DNA from: a virus | Taxonomy: Duplodnaviria; Caudoviricetes | DNA: 28,688 nt | Virus record (IMG/VR): IMGVR_UViG_3300023218_000274 | Span: 1 to 28,688 of that record | Reading direction: 5' to 3' (one strand) | Shown: positions 6,652 to 28,688 of the stretch, piece after piece | Numbering within the stretch: the first letter of the stretch is position 1 | Layout of the letters: each line of letters opens with the position of its first letter | Position numbers and translations under genes: made by a program | Notes under the pieces: generated by a model | The model's input: only the letters and a program-made list of their open reading frames with translations | Told to the model about the DNA's origin: nothing | Databases searched by the model: none

Positions 6652-7082
6652 CACGACACTCCCGAGGTGGTCCACTCGCTGAAGACGGCGACCTTGGCCG
6701 TCACGCTGACGGTGATGGCCTCCTCCAGCGGCTCGGCGCGGCTGAAGTTCGTGATCGAGAAGTCCGCGACCAGCCCCTCGCCCGACGCGCCGGCCGAGTC
6801 GAGCGCCGCCAGGCCGATGATGGTTCCGTTGAGGAACGCGTCTTTGATCGCCTCGAAGCCAGCATCGCCGGGCTCCCAGACCATCTCGAACTCGAGCGTG
6901 CCCTCCTTGAGCGTGGCGAGCGTCGCCCGCCAGCCGGAGTTGGCGCGGGTGGTGATGTCCGCCTCGCCCGCCTCGACGGTGAGCGTGAGGTCGCGCACGT
7001 TGGTCAGCTCGGTCCACGAGCCGGCGCCCCCGACCCCGCCTGTCTTGAACATCAGAACCGCGAACATGCCCTGGATGGCCAT
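6651..7082 (-). CDS. Major tail tube protein (143 aa)
   Basis: WTELTNVRDLTL...EADITTR..GWR....LKEGTLEFEM...ITNFSRAEPLEEAITVSVT is a siphovirus tube-protein pattern; position fits. Confidence 0.8.
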   Translation of the reverse strand: MAIQGMFAVLMFKTGGVGGAGSWTELTNVRDLTLTVEAGEADITTRANSGWRATLATLKEGTLEFEMVWEPGDAGFEAIKDAFLNGTIIGLAALDSAGASGEGLVADFSITNFSRAEPLEEAITVSVTAKVAVFSEWTTSGVS

Positions 7083-14309: not shown

Positions 14310-14920
14310 AGCACGGCCTCGAGGTACGGACGCATGACCTTGCTCACCCGATCGATCTCCGCGTACCGCATGATGGCCTGAATGTCCGTCCGACGCTCTC
14401 GCCGGTACATCCGCAGGGCCTCGACGGCGACGTCGAGGCCGATCTTGTTGCGGAACTTGAAGCAGTCCGCCAGCGTCTTCTCGGGGCTGTAAACGCGAAT
14501 CGTCACGCCGTCCCGCTCATGCTCCTGGACGCCCTCGGTGAGGGCGTCGCCGCTGAAGCGGTAGACCCTGATCGGGGGATGGTCGATCACCGGCGCCCAC
14601 TTTCCCGGCGGCAGCGCGATGTCCACCGCGTGCGGGATCTGGGTGGTGATGCCGTGCAGAGCGAGCGCCGAGATCAGGCACACGACCCCCTCCGGCGCCC
14701 GGGCGGCGACGGCGAAGAGGTCAGGATCGGCGAGCGGCTCCTCGTCGGCCAGCCGATAGACGCCCCGGGAGACGCGTTCGAGCAGCCCCTGATCGCGCAT
14801 GGCGTAGAGTGTCCGGGGGTGGATGCCCCGGGCGAGGGCTTCCCGCGTCCGCATGACGCCCCCGTGGCGTTGGAACACGCTTCGGGCTCGCTCGACCGTC
14901 TTTTCCGGGACCTTGCTCAT
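14306..14920 (-). CDS. abiEi: Type IV TA antitoxin AbiEi (N-terminal winged HTH), 204 aa
   Basis: GLLERVSRGVYRL, VCLISALALHGITTQIP and VYSPEKTLADCFKFRNKIGLDVAVEAL are characteristic of AbiEi. Confidence 0.92.
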   Translation of the reverse strand: MSKVPEKTVERARSVFQRHGGVMRTREALARGIHPRTLYAMRDQGLLERVSRGVYRLADEEPLADPDLFAVAARAPEGVVCLISALALHGITTQIPHAVDIALPPGKWAPVIDHPPIRVYRFSGDALTEGVQEHERDGVTIRVYSPEKTLADCFKFRNKIGLDVAVEALRMYRRERRTDIQAIMRYAEIDRVSKVMRPYLEAVL

Positions 14921-18000: not shown

Positions 18001-18630
18001 ATGGCGAAGAAGACCACCCGGAAGAAGACGACCAAGAAGACCGCGCCGAAGAAGGCCTCGACGAAGAAGACCGGCGCCAAGACCGATGCGCCGACGATCA
18101 CTATCTTCCGCGCAGCGCCTGGCAGCGCGTACCACTGGCGTCTCGGCGACAGCGTCAACGCCAAGCGCTACATGGCGCGGAGCCAAGCCGAGCGCGCCGC
18201 GCTCAAGGCCCATTCGGACGCTGCGATCGTCCACGAGCCCGACCCGATGAAGTACGTGCCGAAGAAGAACGCCCCGGCCAAGGGCGATGCCAAGCAGGCC
18301 AAGCGGCGCTCGCGGCGTGAGCGCGTGCCGGACTCGGCGGGCGGACGCGCGATGCGCATCCACCGCAACCTCGCCGACAAGCCCAAGCGCATGAGTCTGC
18401 TCGATGCGGCCGCGACCGTGCTCTCTGACGCGAAGGCCCCGATGCAGGCGAAGCAGATCGTCGAGGCGGTCATCGAGCGCGGCCTCTGGAAGCCCAGCGC
18501 GGGCAAGACGCCCCACGCGACGCTCTACGCCGCGATGACGCGCGAGATCGCCGCCAAGGGCAAGGACGCCCGCTTCCGCAAGGTCGGCCGCGGGCAGTTC
18601 GTGTCCGGGGGCGCCGGGAAGGACGCCTGA
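18001..18630 (+). CDS. HARE-type winged HTH DNA-binding protein with Lys-rich histone H1-like N-terminus (209 aa)
   Basis: AAGGAG SD. C-terminal MSLLDAAATVL...M.AKQIVE.....GLW....GKTPHATLYAAM.REI......RF.KVGRGQF fits HARE-HTH; N-terminal KKT repeats. Confidence 0.85.
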   Translation: MAKKTTRKKTTKKTAPKKASTKKTGAKTDAPTITIFRAAPGSAYHWRLGDSVNAKRYMARSQAERAALKAHSDAAIVHEPDPMKYVPKKNAPAKGDAKQAKRRSRRERVPDSAGGRAMRIHRNLADKPKRMSLLDAAATVLSDAKAPMQAKQIVEAVIERGLWKPSAGKTPHATLYAAMTREIAAKGKDARFRKVGRGQFVSGGAGKDA

Positions 18631-18633
18631 GCC

Positions 18634-18972
18634 ATGCCCGACGAGACCTTCACCATCGAGGACGGCTCGTTGATCCGGCGCGTCGTCCCCCGGCGCGGGA
18701 CGCCCTACGAGCACACCTGCACCGAGCAGGTCTACAAGGACGCCGCCTGGGCCATCGAGCAGCTCGGCGCGGCCACCTTCACCGGCGAGATGATCCGTGA
18801 CCGGATCAATGCCCCGCACACCCAGGTGATGACCGCGATGGCGTTCCTCAAGGAGCGGGGCTGCATCGTCCCGGGGCGTGAGCGCCGCCACCGCGCCGCG
18901 AGCGACTTCGTCTACGAGGACGCCCTCATCGAGTGGCACGCCCTGCGGGAGGGAGCGCCGGGCAGCGCCTGA
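18634..18972 (+). CDS. Hypothetical protein (112 aa), possible winged-helix
   Basis: 3 nt after the HARE-HTH stop; FTGEMIRDRINAPHTQVMTAMAFLKERGCI resembles a wHTH. Confidence 0.7.
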   Translation: MPDETFTIEDGSLIRRVVPRRGTPYEHTCTEQVYKDAAWAIEQLGAATFTGEMIRDRINAPHTQVMTAMAFLKERGCIVPGRERRHRAASDFVYEDALIEWHALREGAPGSA

Positions 18973-18977
18973 GCAGT

Positions 18978-19760
18978 TCACGCCGCTTCCCCCTCACCCG
19001 CGACAGCCGTCGCGGGTGTTTCTTCGGCGTCAGCGTTTGACGCGATCCGCTCCGCCTTTTTCCCAGTGAACTTCTCCCATCGCTCGACGATCACGTCGCA
19101 GTAGGCCGGGTCGATCTCCATGAGGCACCCCCGCCGGCCTGTCTGCTCGCAGGCGATGAGCGTCGAACCCGACCCACCGAAGAGGTCGAGGACGCGCTGG
19201 CCCGGGCGCGATGAGTACTCGATCGCCAGCCGCGCCAGCTCGACCGGCTTCTCGGTGAGGTGGACCATCGCCTGCGGGTTGACCTTCTTGACGTGCCAGA
19301 GGTCGGTCGCGTTGTTCGGGCCGTAGAAGTGGTGGCCCGCGCCCTCCTTCCAGCCGTAGAAGCAGATCTCGAACGCCCCCATGAAGTCCTTGCGCGTGAG
19401 CACCGGGTGCTGCTTATCCCACACGATGCCCTGGCTGAAATACAGCCCGCACGCCTTGAGCGGGCCGGGGTAGTTGCCGAGGTTCGCGTAGCCGCCCCAG
19501 ATGTAGAACGACCCGCCCGGCTTGAGCACGCGCGCCGCGTTCCCGAACCACGCCAGCAGCAACTCGTCGAACGCCTCGCTCGTGACGAAGTCGTTCTCCA
19601 GCGGCCGGTCCTTGGCCCGCATCTGCTTGTGCGTGCCTTTGGCCTTGCCGGGGTGGCGCGCGAGATCGAGCTTCTGGTGGTGCGACTGCGCCTTCCCCGA
19701 CGCCTTGAACGATGAGTTGCCCGCCGCGATCGCGTTGTTGCTCCGCGGCTCGACCTTGAC
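18978..19760 (-). CDS. ParB-DNA methyltransferase, exon 2 (N6A/N4C MTase C-terminal part)
   Basis: Begins VKVEPRSNN; contains RVLKPGGSFYIW, HLTEKPV and motif I VLDLFGGSGST. Joins exon 1 in frame to give a 455-aa protein with beta-class motif order. Confidence 0.9.
   Translation of the reverse strand, partial: VKVEPRSNNAIAAGNSSFKASGKAQSHHQKLDLARHPGKAKGTHKQMRAKDRPLENDFVTSEAFDELLLAWFGNAARVLKPGGSFYIWGGYANLGNYPGPLKACGLYFSQGIVWDKQHPVLTRKDFMGAFEICFYGWKEGAGHHFYGPNNATDLWHVKKVNPQAMVHLTEKPVELARLAIEYSSRPGQRVLDLFGGSGSTLIACEQTGRRGCLMEIDPAYCDVIVERWEKFTGKKAERIASNADAEETPATAVAGEGEAA
18995..19024 (+). terminator. Intrinsic terminator for the plus-strand island
   Basis: Perfect 10-bp stem CACCCGCGAC-AGCC-GTCGCGGGTG followed by TTTCTT, 22 nt after the stop at 18972; lies inside the 3' end of the convergent MTase gene. 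Confidence 0.75.
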
Positions 19761-19854
19761 GTGGTGTAGGCCGGGGGATTGCACCCCGACCCCAACCCCG
19801 AACCGGACGTGCACGTTTCCGCGCATCCGGCTCTCCAGACGAGTCTTGGTCGCG

Positions 19855-21531
19855 CTACGCACTGTGCTTCTCCCGATGGCAGTCCAGGCACAAGGTCTGG
19901 AGGTTGTCGTCGGTGCTGGCCAGTGCGAAGCTCGCAAAGCGCTTGACGGGAACGATATGGTCCGCCTGAGAGGTCGCATCCGTGACCTCTTTCCCGCAGT
20001 TGCGGCAACGGTAGTCGTCGCGTTGCAGGGTGCGGTATTTCACATCCATGTTGCCCAGACGCTGCCGCTCATTGAAGCGCGCCAGCGCCCATTCCATATC
20101 GTCGTCGGTCTCGTAGACGTTCTGTCCGCCGGTGCCCGGCGTGTACGGCTCCGGCCCCCGATAGTCCAGCTTCATCGAGATGCCGCTGAACGTTTCGAGT
20201 CGGCACAGGTCATCAACCTGGAGCGTGCCGTCCCGGTAGAACCGTTTCATCGCCGCGCCCGTGGGGATGTCGAGCTTCCGGCAGATGGCCTTCAGCCCGA
20301 TCCAGAGCGCCTCGTGATCCAACGTTCCGGCAAGGTCCGTGAAGTTGTGAGCGATGCGGAAGTATTCCGACCACCCACGCACGACAGCCGAACCACGTTT
20401 CAGCCGAAGAGCCACCGATTCCTGGTGGGGACGGCGCCGCATGGCATCGTTGAGTCGTTCCTTCACGTTCCGACGGGCCTTCAGACCAACCTTGATCTTC
20501 GGGACCCGCTTGCCGCCCTGACCCACGGTGTGGCTCAAGTGGAAGCCGAGGAAGTCGAACCCATCGTGGACGTGCGTGATGTGCGTCTTTTCCACCGACA
20601 GTTCCAACCCGCATTCGCGGCGCAGGAACGATCGGATGGAGTCACGCAACGTCTCGGCGTACCGCTTCGACGCCCGCGTGATGAAGACGCACCAGTCATC
20701 GGCGTACCGAACGAATCGCACGTTCGGCTCGCGATGATGCGCTGCTCGCATCATGGCCTGCCCTTGCGTGCCCTTCCCATGCAGGAACCAGTCCAGCTTG
20801 TTCAGGACCGCGTTGGACAGCAGCGGCGAGATCACGCCTCCCTGGGGAACGCCCTTCTCGGTCGGCTGGACAACGCCCTCGACTTCGACGCCGGCCTTGA
20901 GGAACCGACGAATCAGATCGAGGAACGTGTTGTCCATGACCTTCTCCCGCACGACCTTCAGAATGGCCTTGTGCGGGATCTCATCGAAGCACGCCTTGAC
21001 GTCTCCCTCGATCACCCACCTGAAGCCGTGCTTCATGAGGTGCTGACATCGGTAGACGGCATGGTGCGTGCTGCGATTGGGCCGGAACCCGTACGAGTGC
21101 TCGTGGAACTCGACCTCGAAGATCGGCTCAAGCGCCATGCGGATGGCTTCCTGAACGATCTTGTCCCGCAGACAGGGAATGCCCAAGCCGCGCATCTTGC
21201 CGTTGGCCTTGGGGATCATCACCCGCCGCACGGGCTGAGGTTGATACGTTCCACGCTTCAACTCCAGGCGCAGATGTTCGAGCTTCCCCTCCAGTCCCTT
21301 GCGGAACTGGCGGGTCGTCACGCCATCGACGCCCGGCGCTTTGCCGTGAGAGCGACGGAGCACACGGTCCGCGGCTTCCCGCAACCAGTGCGGGTGGTGC
21401 ATCAGGTCCATCAGGTTCCGGACTCGCCCGTCATGCGGGTTCGTCGGGAACAAAGGTGTGCCTGACTCCCGGTGCCGCTTGTGCGCGCCGGATTGCTCCC
21501 ACAACCTTCTCTGGACTTCGTTCACGTTCAT
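19855..21531 (-). CDS. ltrA: Group II intron-encoded reverse transcriptase/maturase with C-terminal HNH endonuclease (558 aa)
   Basis: APGVDG, RGLGIP..RDKIVQ, SYGFRP, GVPQGGVISPLL, RYADD, GFDFLG, X domain RGWSEYF, and HNH CRNC...DHIVP...NLQTLCLDCH. Confidence 0.95.
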   Translation of the reverse strand: MNVNEVQRRLWEQSGAHKRHRESGTPLFPTNPHDGRVRNLMDLMHHPHWLREAADRVLRRSHGKAPGVDGVTTRQFRKGLEGKLEHLRLELKRGTYQPQPVRRVMIPKANGKMRGLGIPCLRDKIVQEAIRMALEPIFEVEFHEHSYGFRPNRSTHHAVYRCQHLMKHGFRWVIEGDVKACFDEIPHKAILKVVREKVMDNTFLDLIRRFLKAGVEVEGVVQPTEKGVPQGGVISPLLSNAVLNKLDWFLHGKGTQGQAMMRAAHHREPNVRFVRYADDWCVFITRASKRYAETLRDSIRSFLRRECGLELSVEKTHITHVHDGFDFLGFHLSHTVGQGGKRVPKIKVGLKARRNVKERLNDAMRRRPHQESVALRLKRGSAVVRGWSEYFRIAHNFTDLAGTLDHEALWIGLKAICRKLDIPTGAAMKRFYRDGTLQVDDLCRLETFSGISMKLDYRGPEPYTPGTGGQNVYETDDDMEWALARFNERQRLGNMDVKYRTLQRDDYRCRNCGKEVTDATSQADHIVPVKRFASFALASTDDNLQTLCLDCHREKHSA

Positions 21532-21858
21532 CGGGAACCCTCCCGATTGATGAACGCTTCGGTCATCCAGAACGAAACATCCTGCCTCCCTTCGCCATGT
21601 GGACGGCTTTCCCGTCCTCGGACTACTACGGAGGCTCCGCCACCCAACCGCCTCATCGGCAGGGATTCAATCGCCCGAAGGCGATCTATCCGTGCGACTG
21701 CCATACTCGGCTGGGCTTCCCTGGTTCCCTTGCGGACACTCAAACGCTTCCGGTTAGACTCCGACCTTTCGGTGCCAAACAGCTCTCTGCTGCTCCCCCA
21801 AGCACCGGCGGATGATTGGCTGCTCCGCCGGCCTCGGAATCGCCGAAGCGATTCGCCG

Positions 21859-21889
21859 GAGCGCGCGCCTACAACGATAACGCGCGCCC
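21859..21889 (-). other. Intron domain Id3 stem-loop carrying EBS1 (GUUGUA) and delta C
   Basis: Stem GGGCGCGCGTT/GGCGCGCGCTC with loop ATCGTTGTA; GTTGTA (21870-21875) is the exact complement of the last 6 nt of exon 1 (TACAAC). Confidence 0.85.
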
Positions 21890-22219
21890 GCTTGGGCCAT
21901 TCCCTATCCCGGGCGGGGTACTCCCGGGCGGCTTCAGTGTTGTCAGGAATGGGGGCCCACTTTCCCGATGGCATTGGTCGGTTCCTGAACGTAGTCATGC
22001 GGAAGCTCTACCTGGCAGGACTGCAACGGCTATGAAGCCTCGCCTGTGTCCCACGTTGTCGGAAGAGCTGTTTCGCCAGCGGAGTCACACAACTCCGCCG
22101 ACTTACTTCCTAGGTACGGTGGCCGGCCAAACGGCCACGGTTCGTGAGTGAACATTGCCACGCAAGGTGTCTCGCACATCTGCATGATCTCAGGCAGCGG
22201 TGCGATACATCAGGCGCAC

Positions 22220-22804
22220 GTTGTACGGCGGGTCGGTGTTGACCAGGTGGATCACCTCGCCGTCGAGCAGGCGGTCAAGATCTGTGGCGCTGCTGCTATC
22301 GCCGCACAGCAGCCGGTGCTTGCCGAGGATCCACAGGTCGCCCGGTCGCGTAGTCGCCTCATCGGGGGGCGATGGCACCTCGTCGGGGTCGGTCAGCCCC
22401 GCGTTCCCGCCGGCGTTGAGCAGCTTGGTCAGTTCCTTCTCGTCAAAACCTAGCGATGCCAGGTCGAAATCCATCGCCTGCAGCTCGCCGAGCTCGATGG
22501 GCAGCAGGTCGAAGTTCCACTCGGCCAGCTCGCCGCTCTTGTTGTCGGCGATGCGGTACGCCTTGATCTGCGCTGGGCTCAGGTCCTTGGCGACATGTAC
22601 CGGGGCCTTCTCCAGCCCGAGCTTGAGCGCCGCCTTGTAGCGGGTGTGGCCGCAGACGATGACGCTCTCGGTGTCCACCACGATCGGCTGGCGGAATCCG
22701 AACTCGCGCAGCGACGCGGCAACAGCATCGACCGCGCCGTCGTTGATCCGGGGGTTGTTCTCGTACGGGATGATGTCGGCGAGGGGACGCAGTTCGATCT
22801 TCAT
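22220..22804 (-). CDS. ParB-DNA methyltransferase, exon 1 (ParB/Srx N-terminal domain up to catalytic DPPYN)
   Basis: IIPYENNPR, SLREFGFRQPIVVD, GHTRYKAA, YRIADNK (ParB-like), then GDLWILGKHRLLCGDS and TDPPYN; 195 codons; GGAGG SD. Confidence 0.92.
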
Positions 22805-23417: not shown

Positions 23418-25601
23418 TCATGACTTGGCCTCCTCGCCCGCGGCGGGCTGAGGCACGGTGGCGAAGAGCACCTTGTGAGCCCGGCCAACCCGCCAGCGGT
23501 AGATCAGCCCGCGGCTCTCGGCGATGTCCAGCAGGTCCGCCACGCGACGCCAGGACAGCCCGGGCTCGCCCTTGGCGTCCTCGCGGATCTCGGCCTTACC
23601 GACCGGCTCGGCCGAGATGAACCGGGCGACGAACCGCTCCACGCCCCACGACGGCTCCGCGGGCTTGTCGGCCTTGGGCGAGGCGTCCTTCTTCTTGCCC
23701 GGCCGCTCGTTCTTGAGCGACGCCGGGTCGAGCGTGTCGTCCACCGACCACACCGGAAAGTCCCACCGCAGGCAGGTCGGGTCGATGGGCGGCCAGGACC
23801 GCACGGCCGCGTCGAGCACGACCACGCCGTCCTCCTCGTGCGGCCGCAGGACCAGGTGCGTGTCGGTGGCCCGGCTCTGCGCGCCAGCCCCGGCCCCGAC
23901 GTCGGTCACGCTCTTGCCGCTCTGGCTGCCCTTGGTCGAGTGGTGGATGAGCACGAAGCAGCAGCCCAGATGGTCGGCGAAGGCGTCGATGCGGTTGTAG
24001 ATGTTGGCCATCGTGCCGTTGTCGTTCTCGTCGCCGCCGGCGGGCATGAAGCGGTAGAACGCGTCGAGCACGATGACCTTGAACCGCCCTGGCTCAAGGG
24101 CCTCGAAGTACGGCGCGAGCGTGAAGATGTCCTGGAGCCGCCCGCGCAGGTTGTCCACGAAGATCCGCTCGGCGATCTCGCGCATCGCCACGCCCCGGGC
24201 CTGGGCGACCTTCGGCAGGCGGTGGGCGCTGGTCTCGCGGTGCAGCTCGTTGTCGATGATCAGGACCGGCCCGGCCTCGGTCTGGTAGCGCCCAAGCCAC
24301 GGCCGACCGGTGGCGACCGCGATCGCCAGGTCGAGCGTGAGCCATGACTTCCCTGTCTTGGGGCTGGCGATGACGTTCATGGTCTCGCCGGCGCGGAGCA
24401 GACCGTGGATCACGGGCTCGCGCAGTTGCGGGTACGCCGCGACGAGCTCGCCCACCGGCACGGGGCAGGGCTCGAGCGGCCCAGTCGCTGGCGGCGTGTC
24501 TGTCATGAATGCGGAGAGGTCGACGCCGGTCGGGTGCTCGCGCGAGCCGTAGTCCTCGGCAGCCAGCGCCGACGCCGCGGCCGCGAAGTCGCCGTGGTGC
24601 TCGAGCAGGGCGTAGACCGCGAACGGCGAGTAGCCCTTGTGCGCCTCGAACGGCGCGGCGTTGGTGCTGAAAACGTAGAAGACCCGGTCCTTCAATGTCG
24701 CGCTCGTGCCCGCCGACTTGCCGGGCCGACGCCAGTGCTCATTCTCACCGGAACGCACCAGCGTCCAGCCGTGCCGGAGCAGGATCTCGCGCGGGTCGCC
24801 CCGGTCGTTGAAGTCGTCGCCGGGGCGGGAGGGGCAACTATTCGGGAATGCCGAAGAGTTGGAGGGTGCGAGACCACCGCCCATCACCGGCTGGGGCGTT
24901 TCGTCCAGCGCCCACGCGCAGCCGAGCAGCACGTCCCGCTCGTCGGCGGTGATCAGCGGTGGCTCGCACAGGTCGCCCTGGGCGACCTCGTAACCCGGCG
25001 AGGGGTCGCAGAGGAACAGCCCACCCTCGCCCCGCGTCTCGATGATGGTCACCGTGACCACCCACGCGCCCGACGCGTCGCGCCTCGGTGCATACTCCTT
25101 GCTGCCCACGACGACCGGCTCGTCGCTATCGACATCGATCCGGCGCTGGGCAAGCTTGGTGTTGCCCGACACGGGCGCCTCGCAGCGGTAGACGACGTGC
25201 CTGCCGCCCGACGGCGTCGTTTCGATGACCAGCCGCTCCAGCAGCCCCGGCGCTGCCGCTTCGACCGCCTCACGCCAGGCCTCGAAGGCCTCGCCGCCGC
25301 CGCCGTCCCAGTTGTCGAAATCGATCATCTCCAGGTGGCCCGAGACCGCGCCGCACACGAGGCACATCGCGCTCGGCGACGATTCGGGGTTGAACCCACT
25401 TCCGCCAAACCAGGATCCCAGTTCGTCGCCAGACGGCAGCCGCGTCTGGTACGGCTTCCACGAGGACAGGGCGACGCGCTTCTCCTCGCCGCGGCGGATC
25501 GCGGGCAGAGCGCAGAGCCCCGCGGCCACGCAGGCCGTCGCGTGCGAAGCAAGCGTGCCGTTGCGACGGGGCGAATCGGATGGGTGCGGAGCGTCCTCCA
25601 T
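23418..25601 (-). CDS. Bifunctional primase/polymerase fused to AAA_25 (RepA-like) helicase (727 aa)
   Basis: Prim-Pol motifs WKPYQ, LEMIDFD, ETTPSGGRHVVY, ETRGEGG; Walker A ASPKTGKS, Walker B VIVLDAFY, LIHHSTKG. Confidence 0.88.
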   Translation of the reverse strand: MEDAPHPSDSPRRNGTLASHATACVAAGLCALPAIRRGEEKRVALSSWKPYQTRLPSGDELGSWFGGSGFNPESSPSAMCLVCGAVSGHLEMIDFDNWDGGGGEAFEAWREAVEAAAPGLLERLVIETTPSGGRHVVYRCEAPVSGNTKLAQRRIDVDSDEPVVVGSKEYAPRRDASGAWVVTVTIIETRGEGGLFLCDPSPGYEVAQGDLCEPPLITADERDVLLGCAWALDETPQPVMGGGLAPSNSSAFPNSCPSRPGDDFNDRGDPREILLRHGWTLVRSGENEHWRRPGKSAGTSATLKDRVFYVFSTNAAPFEAHKGYSPFAVYALLEHHGDFAAAASALAAEDYGSREHPTGVDLSAFMTDTPPATGPLEPCPVPVGELVAAYPQLREPVIHGLLRAGETMNVIASPKTGKSWLTLDLAIAVATGRPWLGRYQTEAGPVLIIDNELHRETSAHRLPKVAQARGVAMREIAERIFVDNLRGRLQDIFTLAPYFEALEPGRFKVIVLDAFYRFMPAGGDENDNGTMANIYNRIDAFADHLGCCFVLIHHSTKGSQSGKSVTDVGAGAGAQSRATDTHLVLRPHEEDGVVVLDAAVRSWPPIDPTCLRWDFPVWSVDDTLDPASLKNERPGKKKDASPKADKPAEPSWGVERFVARFISAEPVGKAEIREDAKGEPGLSWRRVADLLDIAESRGLIYRWRVGRAHKVLFATVPQPAAGEEAKS

Positions 25602-27301
25602 CAGAACGGCACCTCGTCGTCGCTGTAGCCGTACGCCGCGAGGGCGTGCTCAGGCCCAACATCAGGAAGGTTGTCCGGGTCCTCGAGACGCGGCGGCTTG
25701 TCGCCGAGCGCGTAGCCGACGATCCGCTCCCATTCGTCGCCGGGCTTTTTCTCCAGCGTGATGCGCTCGGTCCGGGCCAGCGCGCCCGCGTTCGCCCACT
25801 CAACGGCCTCCTCGACCGAGGACGGCAGCGGGTCATTGGATCGCTTTCGCCACCACTGCTCGGCCTTGCGGCGGGCGAAACCGCCCTCGGGATGCTCAAA
25901 GCACAGCCACTCGCGGGCCCAGCGGTTGAAGCCGATGCGGTACTCGACGCGCATCGTCGGCTTGGCCAGCGGGTCGTTGCGCTTGTGGTGGACGTAGTAC
26001 GCGACCTCGATGACGCGCTCGTCGCGCCGGGCCGGGCCTTCCGAGCCGGTGACAATCTCTTCGTCCGATGCGATCGCCGCGTGCTTGACCTGCCGCGGCG
26101 GGAACTTGTGCCCGCACTCGGGACAGACGGCGTACGCCGCGTGGATCAACGCATCGCACTCGGGGCACTGCTTGGCGGGGGCTTCGCCCGAGGCGTCCTT
26201 GGTGTCGGCCAGCCGGATCGCATCGACCGGGCCATGCCGGAGCACGTTGCCGCCGAAGTCCAGCACGAGGCAGTCGGTCTTCCCATCCGCCAGCCGGAAC
26301 CCCCGCCCGACCATCTGGTAGTAGAGCCCCGGGCTCATCGTCGGGCGCAGCATCGCCACGCAGTCGACATTCGGGGCGTCGAAGCCCGTCGTCAGCACGT
26401 TCACGTTCGCCAGGTATTTCAGGTCGCCACCCTTGAAGCGTGCGATCAGCGCATCGCGTTCCCTCGCAGGTGTCCCGCCCTCGACGAACCCGCACTCAAC
26501 GCCGTGCTTCTCACGCAGCACCCGCACCACGTGCTCCCCGTGCCGAACGCCCGAGCAGAACAGCAGCACGCTGCGACGGTCGGCCGTCGCGCCGACGACC
26601 TCGGCGCAGGCCGCCTCAACCAGCCCGTCCTCGTCCATGCGGTCCTCGAGCTCGCCTGCGACGAACTCCCCGCCCCGTACATGGATGTCGCTCGTGTCAG
26701 CGACCGCCTTCCCGGCCCGGCTCTTGAGCGGGCACAGGTAGCCCTGCACGATGAGCTCACGCACACCGGCCTCGAAGCACACCTCGTGCAGCACCGACTC
26801 GGGGCCGCAGATCGTGCCGGTCTTCATGCGGTACGGCGTCGCCGTCAGCCCGATGACGCGCTGGTGGTCGCACAGGTCCTGCGCGTCTGCCAGGAAGCGG
26901 CGGTACATGCCTTCGCCGTCCGGCGGGATCAGGTGCGCCTCGTCCACGATGACCAGGTCGAGCGGCCCAAGATCGTGCGCCCGCTGGTACACCGACTGGA
27001 TGCCCGCGATCGTCACGGCGTACCCGAGATCCCGCCGCCCGAGCCCGGCGCTGAACACGCCCACCGGCAGGTCGGGCGCGACGGCCGGCAGCGTGCCAGC
27101 CGCCTGCTCGAGCAGTTCCTTCACGTGGGCGACCACGATCACCCGCCCGCTCCACTTCTGCACCGCGTCGCGGCACAGCTCGGCGATGACGTGGGTCTTG
27201 CCCGATCCGGTCGGGAGCACGACGGCTGGGTTCGTGTCGCTGGTGGCGATGTGGTTCCACACGGCATCGACCGCGTCGCGTTGGTATGGCCTGAGTCCCA
27301 T
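25601..27301 (-). CDS. SF2 DEAD/DEAH-box helicase (RadD/YejH-like) with zinc ribbon (566 aa)
   Basis: LRPYQ, PTGSGKT, DEAH, GLTATP, LTTGFDAP, QMVGRGFR; CPEC...CPEC zinc finger; acidic DDEVPF tail. Confidence 0.92.
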   Translation of the reverse strand: MGLRPYQRDAVDAVWNHIATSDTNPAVVLPTGSGKTHVIAELCRDAVQKWSGRVIVVAHVKELLEQAAGTLPAVAPDLPVGVFSAGLGRRDLGYAVTIAGIQSVYQRAHDLGPLDLVIVDEAHLIPPDGEGMYRRFLADAQDLCDHQRVIGLTATPYRMKTGTICGPESVLHEVCFEAGVRELIVQGYLCPLKSRAGKAVADTSDIHVRGGEFVAGELEDRMDEDGLVEAACAEVVGATADRRSVLLFCSGVRHGEHVVRVLREKHGVECGFVEGGTPARERDALIARFKGGDLKYLANVNVLTTGFDAPNVDCVAMLRPTMSPGLYYQMVGRGFRLADGKTDCLVLDFGGNVLRHGPVDAIRLADTKDASGEAPAKQCPECDALIHAAYAVCPECGHKFPPRQVKHAAIASDEEIVTGSEGPARRDERVIEVAYYVHHKRNDPLAKPTMRVEYRIGFNRWAREWLCFEHPEGGFARRKAEQWWRKRSNDPLPSSVEEAVEWANAGALARTERITLEKKPGDEWERIVGYALGDKPPRLEDPDNLPDVGPEHALAAYGYSDDEVPF

Positions 27302-27693
27302 CAGTCCGTCGCCTCCATGCTCGTGATCCGGACGATCACCTTGCCCCCGGGCACGACCGGCCCGCGCTCGATCTCGATCCGATCGATCTGGCCGTCGTCT
27401 TCGTACACCCCGCCGTGCCCGAGGGCGTCGAGCAGGGCCTTCATCGCGTTGTCCAGGTCCCGCCGCCTTCGGTCGGGCGGGTGGGCGGTGACATGCACCG
27501 CCACCCGTCCCGACATGGGCTCTGCCGTTCGCCTGGCGAGCCGGGCGCAGACCCGCTTGCGGAACTTCCGTCCCTCGCGGCTGATCAGCGTCCGATCGCC
27601 GACGCGACGCCAGTAGTGGTTCACGCTGGGCGGGTACGGCAACTCGACGACGAACGCGCCTTCGTCAGCCGCCGCGGCTTTCAGCGCTTCCAC
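27301..27693 (-). CDS. rusA: RusA family Holliday junction resolvase (130 aa)
   Basis: LPYPPSVNHYWR, PPDRRRRDLDN..KALLDAL, DDGQID motifs. Start codon uncertain. Confidence 0.9.
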   Translation of the reverse strand: MEALKAAAADEGAFVVELPYPPSVNHYWRRVGDRTLISREGRKFRKRVCARLARRTAEPMSGRVAVHVTAHPPDRRRRDLDNAMKALLDALGHGGVYEDDGQIDRIEIERGPVVPGGKVIVRITSMEATD

Positions 27694-28142
27694 GGCGGCG
27701 TCCCTCCCGAGGCGGCCGCCATCGGACGCTGCGGCGCGACGCCGGTGTCCCGCTTGGCGTAGCCCTTGATGGTGTTGGTCGGCTCGCCGTTATCCTCGCG
27801 GTTCTTGATCGCGACGCTGACGACCAGGGGCAGGTTGTGCAGCTCGACCGAGTCGCGGGGCCGCAGCACGTTCACCGCACGGCAGATCGCCGAGAGCGTC
27901 CCGCGGGCAATCTCGATCGTCTGGGTGTTGGTGTGCTTGAGGGTCAGCCGGTCCCAGAGCTTGCGGCCCTTGAACGGTCCCTCCAGCACCTCCATCTCGA
28001 GTTCCAGATACTCGCCCTTGCCGTTCTTGGTCGGCTTCATGGCGCTGGCCGTGATGGCGGCCACGTACTTGCCGGCGGGGATGGGATCGAAGCCAGCATT
28101 GGGCTCCACGTTGGTCGCGTCGAATCCGTTCAGGTCTGCCAT
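27681..28142 (-). CDS. DUF669 family protein (putative phage single-stranded DNA-binding protein), 153 aa
   Basis: FDPIPAGKY.A.I.....KPTKNG.GEYL.L....LEG..KGRKLWDRL...PPWKR; adjacent to AAA_24 ATPase. Confidence 0.8.
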   Translation of the reverse strand: MADLNGFDATNVEPNAGFDPIPAGKYVAAITASAMKPTKNGKGEYLELEMEVLEGPFKGRKLWDRLTLKHTNTQTIEIARGTLSAICRAVNVLRPRDSVELHNLPLVVSVAIKNREDNGEPTNTIKGYAKRDTGVAPQRPMAAASGGTPPWKR

Positions 28143-28145
28143 GGT

Positions 28146-28688
28146 TCAGGCTCCTTGCTCTTGGGTGGTCTGGTTGGTGTCGTTCTGGTTGGCGTTCTCG
28201 TTGACGACGGTCGGATCGCCCTCGCCGCGCGCCATCGCCGCGAACACGCGGTAATCCAGCGGCAACTCGTCGGGCAGGTTCAGGCGGTTCTTGGCGACGT
28301 GGGCCGGCCGCTCGGTCGTGCGGAGGATCCGCTCGCCCGTGCCGATACCCTGCGTGCGCTTGCGGTCGAAGCCCTCGCTCTGGGTCTTCGTGTGGACGCG
28401 GTAGGTGGCGAAGAGCACCTCGTCGCACCACTCCTGGATCAGCGCCGATGCCTGCTTCTGCAGGCGGGGCACGTAGCGGTCGTAGGTGTCGGTTTCGGGG
28501 TTGGCGAACTTCTCGATCGCCGCGTGCGCGATCAGGACGACCTGCATCCCGCGCTCGGTCCGCAGCGCGTCGAGGCCCGCCAGGACCTCGCGCCATTGCG
28601 TCAGCGCGAAGATGTAGCCTTTGGCGTAACCGATGTCCTCGATCGTCTCGACGCCGCGCTTCGCGCAGACCTCGGCCCAGATCAGCCG
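28146..28688 (-). CDS. AAA_24/Sak4-like ATPase, 5'-truncated by the window edge
   Basis: Frame is open to the window end (RLIWAEVC...IEDIGYAKGY...VVLIAH...YDRY.PRL...EWCDEVLFA...AKNRLNLP). Confidence 0.82.
   Translation of the reverse strand, partial: RLIWAEVCAKRGVETIEDIGYAKGYIFALTQWREVLAGLDALRTERGMQVVLIAHAAIEKFANPETDTYDRYVPRLQKQASALIQEWCDEVLFATYRVHTKTQSEGFDRKRTQGIGTGERILRTTERPAHVAKNRLNLPDELPLDYRVFAAMARGEGDPTVVNENANQNDTNQTTQEQGA

Follow-up and report, generated by a model that had tools for sequence, protein, structure and literature searches.

A 28.7-kb virus record (IMG/VR IMGVR_UViG_3300023218_000274; hereafter the window, to whose full length all coordinates refer) carries a group II intron of 2,459 nt (19761–22219, minus strand) inside the gene of a phage ParB-methyltransferase, directly after the codons for DPPYN, the catalytic motif IV of the enzyme. 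Judged from its sequence, the intron is intact and its exon recognition is of the IIA type. It probably splices with the help of its own protein, which would restore the enzyme, and probably retrohomes to the same codons in vacant alleles of other prophages.

Exon 1 of the methyltransferase gene (22220–22804, 585 nt; minus strand, as are all features of the gene and intron given below) encodes a ParB_N domain (PF02195, E = 7e-7), matches phrog_498 (E = 1e-67) and ends with GAC CCG CCG TAC AAC, the codons of DPPYN (residues 191–195). Exon 2 (18978–19760, 783 nt, 260 residues) begins with GTC AAG GTC GAG, the first G being δ′, and supplies the remainder of an N6_N4 methylase domain (PF01555, E = 2.9e-25) with TEKP at residue 364 and motif I, FGGSGST, at 389. 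The joined exons encode 455 residues with a sole, terminal stop and the junction DPPYN/VKVEPR (the slash marks the insertion point here and below). Motif IV (DPPY, 191) precedes motif I (FxGxG, 389), an order by which we take the enzyme to be a beta-type N6A/N4C DNA methyltransferase; PF01555 and Protein Data Bank (PDB) matches to CcrMI, MboIIA and RsrI also point to a predicted DNA-methylating enzyme. Without splicing, the exon 1 frame would continue for nine codons into the intron and then stop, giving a ParB-containing product of 204 residues. A 333-residue frame (19979–18978) that starts inside the intron does not contain motif IV and was taken as a by-product.

The intron boundaries and the 455-residue enzyme had been proposed in a preliminary description of this sequence and are now confirmed independently. 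The intron-less alleles that it suggested looking for exist: a scan of IMG/VR for uninterrupted codons found alleles in which DPPYN and VKVEPR are contiguous (120 listed, about 580 estimated in total), the best of those listed being 82% identical to the joined window protein over 447 residues and their median identity being 67%. In addition, one contig assembled from DNA run X1 jumps over exactly the length of the intron, 2,459 nt, and the match to Rfam RF00029 (19835–19761; 58.8 bits, E = 2.5e-9) ends at the proposed 3′ end.

The intron starts with GTGCG and ends with CCTACACCAC. Its termini (5′ GUGYG, 3′ AY) are kept in 37 relatives, and its GC content is 62% versus 65–67% in the exons. Domains V and VI (19761–19835) contain the AGC triad, a bulged A at 19767 (position −7), which is the predicted branch point, and the terminal CAC. 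The Rfam models of domains D1–D4 matched nothing in the window up to E = 10 and nothing in three relatives, and so could not classify the intron. A GCGAAACAGC-type motif is found in the putative λ–ε′ region of the window, with AGC in six of the eight family members shown; an 11-nt loop with AGC in this region is a hallmark of IIA introns (PMC12350094), and automatic folds disagree on the loop here.

The intron-encoded protein (IEP, 19855–21531, 558 residues) consists of a reverse transcriptase (RT) with YADD at residues 276–279, an X/thumb domain and an HNH endonuclease (509–557). The preliminary description regarded all three domains as intact, and this holds: the protein matches RVT_1 (E = 1.4e-38) and HNH (E = 1.1e-10) in Pfam, and YADD and the HNH cysteines and histidines are invariant across 32 aligned relatives. 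The X domain matches Pfam GIIM weakly (E = 6e-4, below the cut-off), and its region aligns to known maturases. A hairpin at 21530–21547 takes in the ribosome site (GGAGG) together with the first two bases of the start codon of the IEP. It is predicted in 11 of the 11 family members checked, with differing stem sequences, and likely serves translational control of the IEP. Translational control by a hairpin over the ribosome site occurs in Ll.LtrB, and the window hairpin resembles it.

Exon recognition was derived from comparison with relatives. Scans for the protein and for domain V in collections of viruses, genomes and metagenomes yielded 167 loci besides the window (given L numbers below), 128 of which have a recognisable family 3′ end, with 98 distinct 30-nt 3′ flanks. 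Named hosts are mostly metagenome-assembled genomes of Planctomycetota (9 of 10 in one scan). Both intron ends are present in 56 loci, 37 of them non-identical; 35 were used after exclusion of two internally rearranged ones (L097 and L062). When every intron column was compared with every exon position, EBS1 was the top column at five of its six positions, the base just before it (21876, δ) was best for exon position +1, and a new block, 21960–21956, was best for −12, −11 and −9. In the window, EBS2 (GUGGG, 21960–21956) pairs with −13 to −9 (IBS2, CCCGC, 22228–22232; the third base of the Asp codon, the first Pro codon and the first base of the second), EBS1 (GUUGUA, 21875–21870) pairs with −6 to −1 (IBS1, TACAAC, the Tyr-Asn codons, 22220–22225), and the δ C pairs with +1. 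All 12 guide positions pair, one of them via G-U, and no other site in the record matches the guides as well as the intron's own 5′ junction. EBS1 and δ lie in the loop of the d3 hairpin (21859–21889); GTTGTA occurs only once in the intron. EBS2, which the preliminary description did not identify, lies in the terminal loop of a second hairpin (21953–21966), the stem pairs of which are kept in 33–35 of 35 introns, one with a G-C/A-U exchange.

The pairings were tested for covariation in 17 loci, namely 16 at sites other than DPPY and the window (L094 was dropped), against 5,000 shuffles, which ignore relatedness, though the target genes differ. For EBS1, 81 of 102 pairs are Watson-Crick (93 with G-U; shuffle mean 32.8, maximum 52), for EBS2 60 of 85 (69 with G-U; 27.6 and 45), and for δ with +1 15 of 17 (16 with G-U; 6.9 and 13). 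The next-best column for +1 (13 of 17) is a stem base adjacent to δ and is mostly T. In this 17-locus test no column covaries with exon positions −8 and −14; partners for −7 and −8 and an EBS2a-like partner for −14 were not found, nor was an EBS3 column in the intron alignment. The 6/6 match of EBS1 to TACAAC and the pairing of the δ C with the first G of exon 2, both noted previously, are thereby borne out. The match by itself is uninformative about adaptation, since it is expected of any group II intron, and it is the covariation that supports the identity of EBS1. By sequence, then, exon recognition is of the IIA type, a typing that goes beyond the preliminary description: δ reads the 3′ exon, as is the pattern in IIA introns (PMC4424553), and EBS2 is located in a hairpin terminal loop (PMC8643678).

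Together the guides span GAY CCN C.. TAY AAY/G, and synonymous changes are absorbed by G-U pairs. Of the five third-codon positions in GAY CCN CCN TAY AAY, three face G (so C or T fits), one faces U (A or G fits) and one is unpaired, and therefore one guide fits most synonymous alleles. In 18 introns at the DPPY site, the third-codon positions form 36 Watson-Crick pairs, 28 G-U pairs and 8 mismatches (of 72), versus 123, 2 and 1 (of 126) at the other positions; many of the third-position G-U pairs come from a fixed U opposite CCG. The same EBS1, GUUGUA, is found in 14 of the 18 and sits on four different IBS1 sequences (TACAAC, TACAAT, TATAAT and TACGGC).

The preliminary description proposed that the intron is adapted to this motif and could home into related methyltransferases. 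The refuting outcome that it named, homologues at unrelated sites with no excess at motif IV, was not observed. The part of that proposal that stands is a recurrent site, an enrichment and the covariation of EBS1 and δ with the exons: 38 of the 98 distinct 3′ flanks follow DPPY-X, 35 of them at DPPY-X/V of this gene family and three at the equivalent codon in other methyltransferase families. The window belongs to a 21-row clade (SH-aLRT 99) of a 55-row quick tree, in which 17 rows lie behind DPPY. Plain inheritance with the gene is excluded, because near-identical introns stand behind exons that are only 67–70% identical, and movement appears to have been recent. Of 2,459 intron bases, 94 differ between the window and L092, and exon 1 is 67% identical; in L002 versus L004 the introns are 97% and the exons 70% identical; the introns of L063 and L082 are identical, and 40 of 60 upstream bases are. 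A second clade (L048, L072 and L119) occupies the same site with a protein 64–65% identical, a longer domain I and EBS2 GAGGG or GGGGG; in L048, EBS1 is ACCGUA on DPPYG. When 29 rows of the quick tree were kept for a topology test (outgroups, near-copies and partial or long rows, 26 of 55, were left out), a single clade of the 12 DPPY rows against the 17 others was rejected (p-AU 2.8e-8), which means either two arrivals at the site or an old site with several departures.

At the three junctions in other methyltransferase families, the sequence continues into a type III Mod-like half followed by a res gene (L004/L006, one assembly filed twice), into sequence that is likewise type III Mod-like and whose homologue reads DPPYN/TGNDEFVY (L092), and into a small N6_N4 methylase whose homologue reads DPPYG/MSFQSNY (L114). 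Two further candidates were rejected as motif IV sites: the flank of L164 matches a methyltransferase family, but the homologue of L164 has no DPPY before the junction, and L013 is inside a gene of the MmeI type, where NPPF follows only about 296 codons later.

Several observations weigh against a motif-directed, splicing and homing intron. Sixty of the 98 flanks lie elsewhere than DPPY. The metagenome scan used the domain V motif of the window and is biased to close relatives, and the assembly of metagenomes can exchange the flanks of a repeat of 2.4 kb. The wobble tolerance of the guides need not have been selected, because G opposite a C-ending codon is automatic in a GC-rich host. Occupancy is low, with about 10 IMG/VR contigs filled at DPPY versus about 580 vacant. 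Among 401 genomes sampled from the phylum of genome G001, three carry the family (G001, one with a tail-tube copy and one with another site), neither new match being at DPPY, versus 54 with vacant DPPY sites, up to four per genome; in genome G002, the intron is found beside three vacant paralogous sites. Finally, all contigs of runs X15 and X16 (RNA) and X1 and X5 (DNA) were surveyed for splice junctions. The RNA runs include a relative with about 96% identity over the intron, at depths of about 47 and 20 and with little exon cover; among the joints listed for them, none leaps 2,459 nt and none is head-to-tail. This outcome was counted neither for nor against splicing, because contigs show neither level nor strand, the libraries may contain DNA, and divergent exons would be missed at 88% likeness.

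These points can be read in three other ways. First, the family may be a generalist of one abundant prophage family without a special link to the motif, DPPY being dominant only via the oversampled, gene-inherited subclade of the window. Members of the family do occupy at least five sites in the methyltransferase gene, namely DPPY and four more (L011, L014, L100/L151 and L125), and three sites in the tail-tube gene (EAD[IV]/TTR, used by a clade of 5 rows, and those of L038 and L035). Others reside in genes for Sak4 (L128), a TrbC pilin (L085), a JAB protein (L106), an MmeI-type enzyme (L013) and transposases of insertion sequences (IS; L009, L137 and L046), and many flanks are unassigned. Three members nested in the window's own clade have changed both EBS1 and site, and the sampling relied on the window's motif. 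A generalist is nevertheless hard to reconcile with near-identical introns behind divergent exons, with the second clade at the same site and with the three junctions on the same codon in other methyltransferase families, and we regard this explanation as unlikely, though it deserves some weight. The family does appear to retarget freely, and it is better called a specialist of the genes of one prophage family and of other mobile elements, with DPPY as its commonest target. Within the sample, the DPPY site itself appears to be a recurrent homing site that is rarely filled.

Second, the lack of a spliced product in the RNA contigs could mean that the window copy no longer splices and merely knocks out a dispensable phage methyltransferase. 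One relative, L010, is indeed decaying: most occupied alleles for which enough sequence is available have an open exon 2, but L010 is an exception, and its IEP also has stops. In the window, the guide pairings, domains V and VI, the IEP frame and both exons are intact, and change in the IEP is mostly synonymous (49 synonymous versus 15 non-synonymous codon differences from the 97% identical copy in L092), which makes a dead copy very unlikely. Third, the intron might be kept as a regulator, splicing switching between the 204-residue ParB-only product and the full enzyme and so timing phage DNA methylation. The ParB-containing frame of the unspliced RNA and the conserved hairpin over the IEP ribosome site would suit such a role; the great majority of alleles, however, have no intron, and the copies, like selfish elements, move from allele to allele and into unrelated genes. 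A regulatory function is thus extremely improbable.

For the retrohoming intron that we favour, the steps of splicing, reverse splicing and copying can be inferred from established group II biology. Transcription of the gene would allow the RT/maturase to be made from domain IV, and protein-assisted lariat release via the A at −7 would restore the 455-residue enzyme. The resulting ribonucleoprotein would reverse-splice into the target strand at GAY CCN C.. TAY AAY/G; HNH would then cut the opposite strand to provide the primer, and the RT would copy the intron. Planctomycete genomes, with up to four vacant copies of the site each, would supply targets. By altering its EBS sequences, the lineage would move between conserved codons in the genes of prophages and other mobile elements, with DPPY as the most used target, and would reach the same motif in unrelated methyltransferases at a low rate.

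The junctions in other methyltransferase families may have a further consequence. In L006 (1721–7663), the phage ParB exon, the intron, the type III Mod half and res follow one another, and the reading frame is open through the junction (199 + 529 codons). Both L004/L006 and L092 have the ParB exon upstream and a δ mismatch. They may represent either misassembly across two copies or true recombinants, and either would imply a copy at a Mod-type site. A bolder proposal, which is doubtful at present, is that an undescribed HNH-bearing IIA lineage, sister to class A, has twice gained guides for motif IV, and that recombination between copies at the same codon builds in-frame hybrid enzymes. L004/L006 and L092 would then be real products, in which everything after DPPY, including the specificity region, has been swapped and a prophage has been joined to a host restriction locus. 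Should the hybrid loci prove real, methyltransferase specificity could be swapped by way of intron copies located at equivalent codons.

Several family members have departed from the window's organisation. L058 (intron of 819 nt) and L094 (770 nt) are derivatives without an open reading frame, for which a maturase would be needed in trans; L058 retains domains I–III and V–VI, is 87–93% identical to the window intron and occupies a DPPYN/V site. A DNA contig of X1 skips 1,744 nt including the IEP (window joint 19837–21582). At position 2025 of L053 (oriented), the 3′ end of the intron is fused exactly to an intron 5′ end, as in a tandem copy, a circle or an assembly loop; tandem insertion is possible because the δ C and the intron-initial G leave the occupied 5′ junction pairing at 12 of 12 positions. 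L097 has a 5′ junction at DPPYN and a 3′ junction at YC/DVI of the same gene, with 1.2 kb of the intron missing, and could be a two-intron recombinant or a chimera. L062 contains a 1.6-kb stretch with several partial copies of domains V/VI and I, and its domain VI is repeated past the 3′ end. The tail-tube clade at EAD[IV]/TTR (L015, L034, L036, L061, L007 and L323) starts with GTATG rather than GTGCG and has G-U pairs on the Asp and Ile/Val codons.

A protein search with the IEP scored 8,000 candidates, of which 3,461 matched at E = 1e-50; identity in the best 120 is 63–98%. No match in INPHARED or PLSDB is as much as 60% identical, those listed being at 44% and below. In a 25-row RT-X tree, which includes 17 reference rows with presumed class labels, the eight family proteins form a clade with 100/100 support. 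This clade groups at 83/93 (below the 95/80 mark) with L039 and two proteins of 502–509 residues, one of them in an E. coli-type IS3 context. The RT rows in E. coli IS3 context are presumably E.c.I4-like, and hence class A. L039 is a more distant group II intron without an endonuclease (En) domain, 38% identical and near a terminase-like gene of a viral contig. L174 (1956–4118) has a class A-type RT frame that runs into an unrelated phage-like C-terminal part (721 residues) and probably represents the fusion of a truncated intron with the adjacent gene.

The resemblance to the class A introns E.c.I4 and S.f.I1 is visible in both protein and RNA. Among plasmids and phages, the RT is matched best by E. 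coli proteins in IS3 elements (39% identity over 358 residues, 44% over residues 36–329), and the 5′ RNA profile of the family matches the D2–D3 region of class A-type introns (E = 2e-19), neither group matching Rfam D1–D4. Class A is associated with IIA RNA (PMC4424553 Table 1), and the unclassified group U3, with an elongated C-terminal part, has been placed near it (PMC8919778). E.c.I4 targets IS3 (PMC3522654), and E.c.I4 and S.f.I1 have no En domain (PMC3552965, PMC8919778). Unlike class A, which has about three near-identical members in the available descriptions (PMC3552965, PMC4424553, PMC3522654, PMC8919778), the family comprises at least 120 proteins that are 63–98% identical, and it targets prophage genes rather than IS3 transposases. 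HNH is present in 8 of 8 family rows and absent from the neighbouring class A-type proteins, and for this reason the family is not filed as class A. By analogy, it would work like a IIA, En-plus retrohoming intron. It adds a large HNH-bearing clade to a tiny En-less neighbourhood, and this is relevant to the published proposal of a single origin of the En domain, in the ancestor of classes B, CL and ML (PMC3552965).

For homing of this kind there is a clear precedent, which limits the surprise: Ll.LtrB and Ef.PcfG, IIA introns of class ML, home to the conserved catalytic motif of relaxase genes on mobile elements (PMC5072309). Like them, the window family combines an RT-X-En protein with EBS1, EBS2 and δ pairing and one conserved position in a catalytic motif (there HLHN-H/HIHN-H), and moves between divergent alleles (there, introns 99.7% and exons 61% identical; PMC5072309). 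Unlike them, it targets motif IV of a prophage methyltransferase and occupies many more sites, its IBS2 in the window lies at −13 to −9 with two unpaired bases, and its protein does not group with L311 (presumed ML by an inferred label, and on a long branch); LtrA ranks fourth among PDB matches.

Group II introns reside in mobile elements as a rule (PMC7306698, PMC2504315), and their presence in phages was already reported in 2025 (PMC12350094). The available text and supplement of the latter paper name no methyltransferase or ParB host and give no family-level analysis of targets, and none of the INPHARED matches listed is closer than 44% to the window IEP. Phage DNA methylases are also known to host an intein, a LAGLIDADG element and the ShiLan HNH insertion (PMC11855218). 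As with those elements, phage methylase genes are here repeatedly invaded at conserved residues; unlike the RNA-guided retroelement of the window, they are inteins or homing endonucleases that act at the DNA level in methylases of actinophages, and the accessible text of that paper does not mention DPPY. What seems to be new here is the lineage and its target; motif homing, as by Ll.LtrB in relaxases, and phage group II introns were known already. A further precedent is reportedly provided by Bacteroides CTn341, in which a group II intron interrupts the methylase-helicase gene bmhA. In the literature searched, with subscription papers and bioRxiv supplements outside the search, there is no description of the planctomycete-prophage lineage or of DPPY targeting. 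The family provides a natural set of group II introns carried by phages, with EBS1, EBS2 and δ visibly changing along with the target, and it shows how a 12-base RNA guide can track a protein motif over synonymous codons and enzyme families.

Upstream of the intron-bearing gene lies a replication module (23418–28688, minus strand; Sak4-like protein, SSB, RusA, helicase and an AAA_25 protein). The structural arm of a tailed phage occupies 3071–17424 (minus strand), with terminase large subunit, portal, head/protease, tail-tube (7082–6651) and tape-measure genes. The tail-tube gene of the window has no intron, and the same gene is a target of this intron family elsewhere. Adjoining the methyltransferase on the opposite (plus) strand, at 18001–18972, are two genes, one for a lysine-rich HARE-HTH protein (PF05066) and one for a 112-residue protein without a Pfam match. 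An AbiEi/AbiEii type IV toxin-antitoxin pair is found at 14920–13386, between the terminase and head genes. In the related prophage of L001, a match to the type II hammerhead ribozyme (6687–6754, minus strand; 40.6 bits) lies about 2 kb downstream of the intron.

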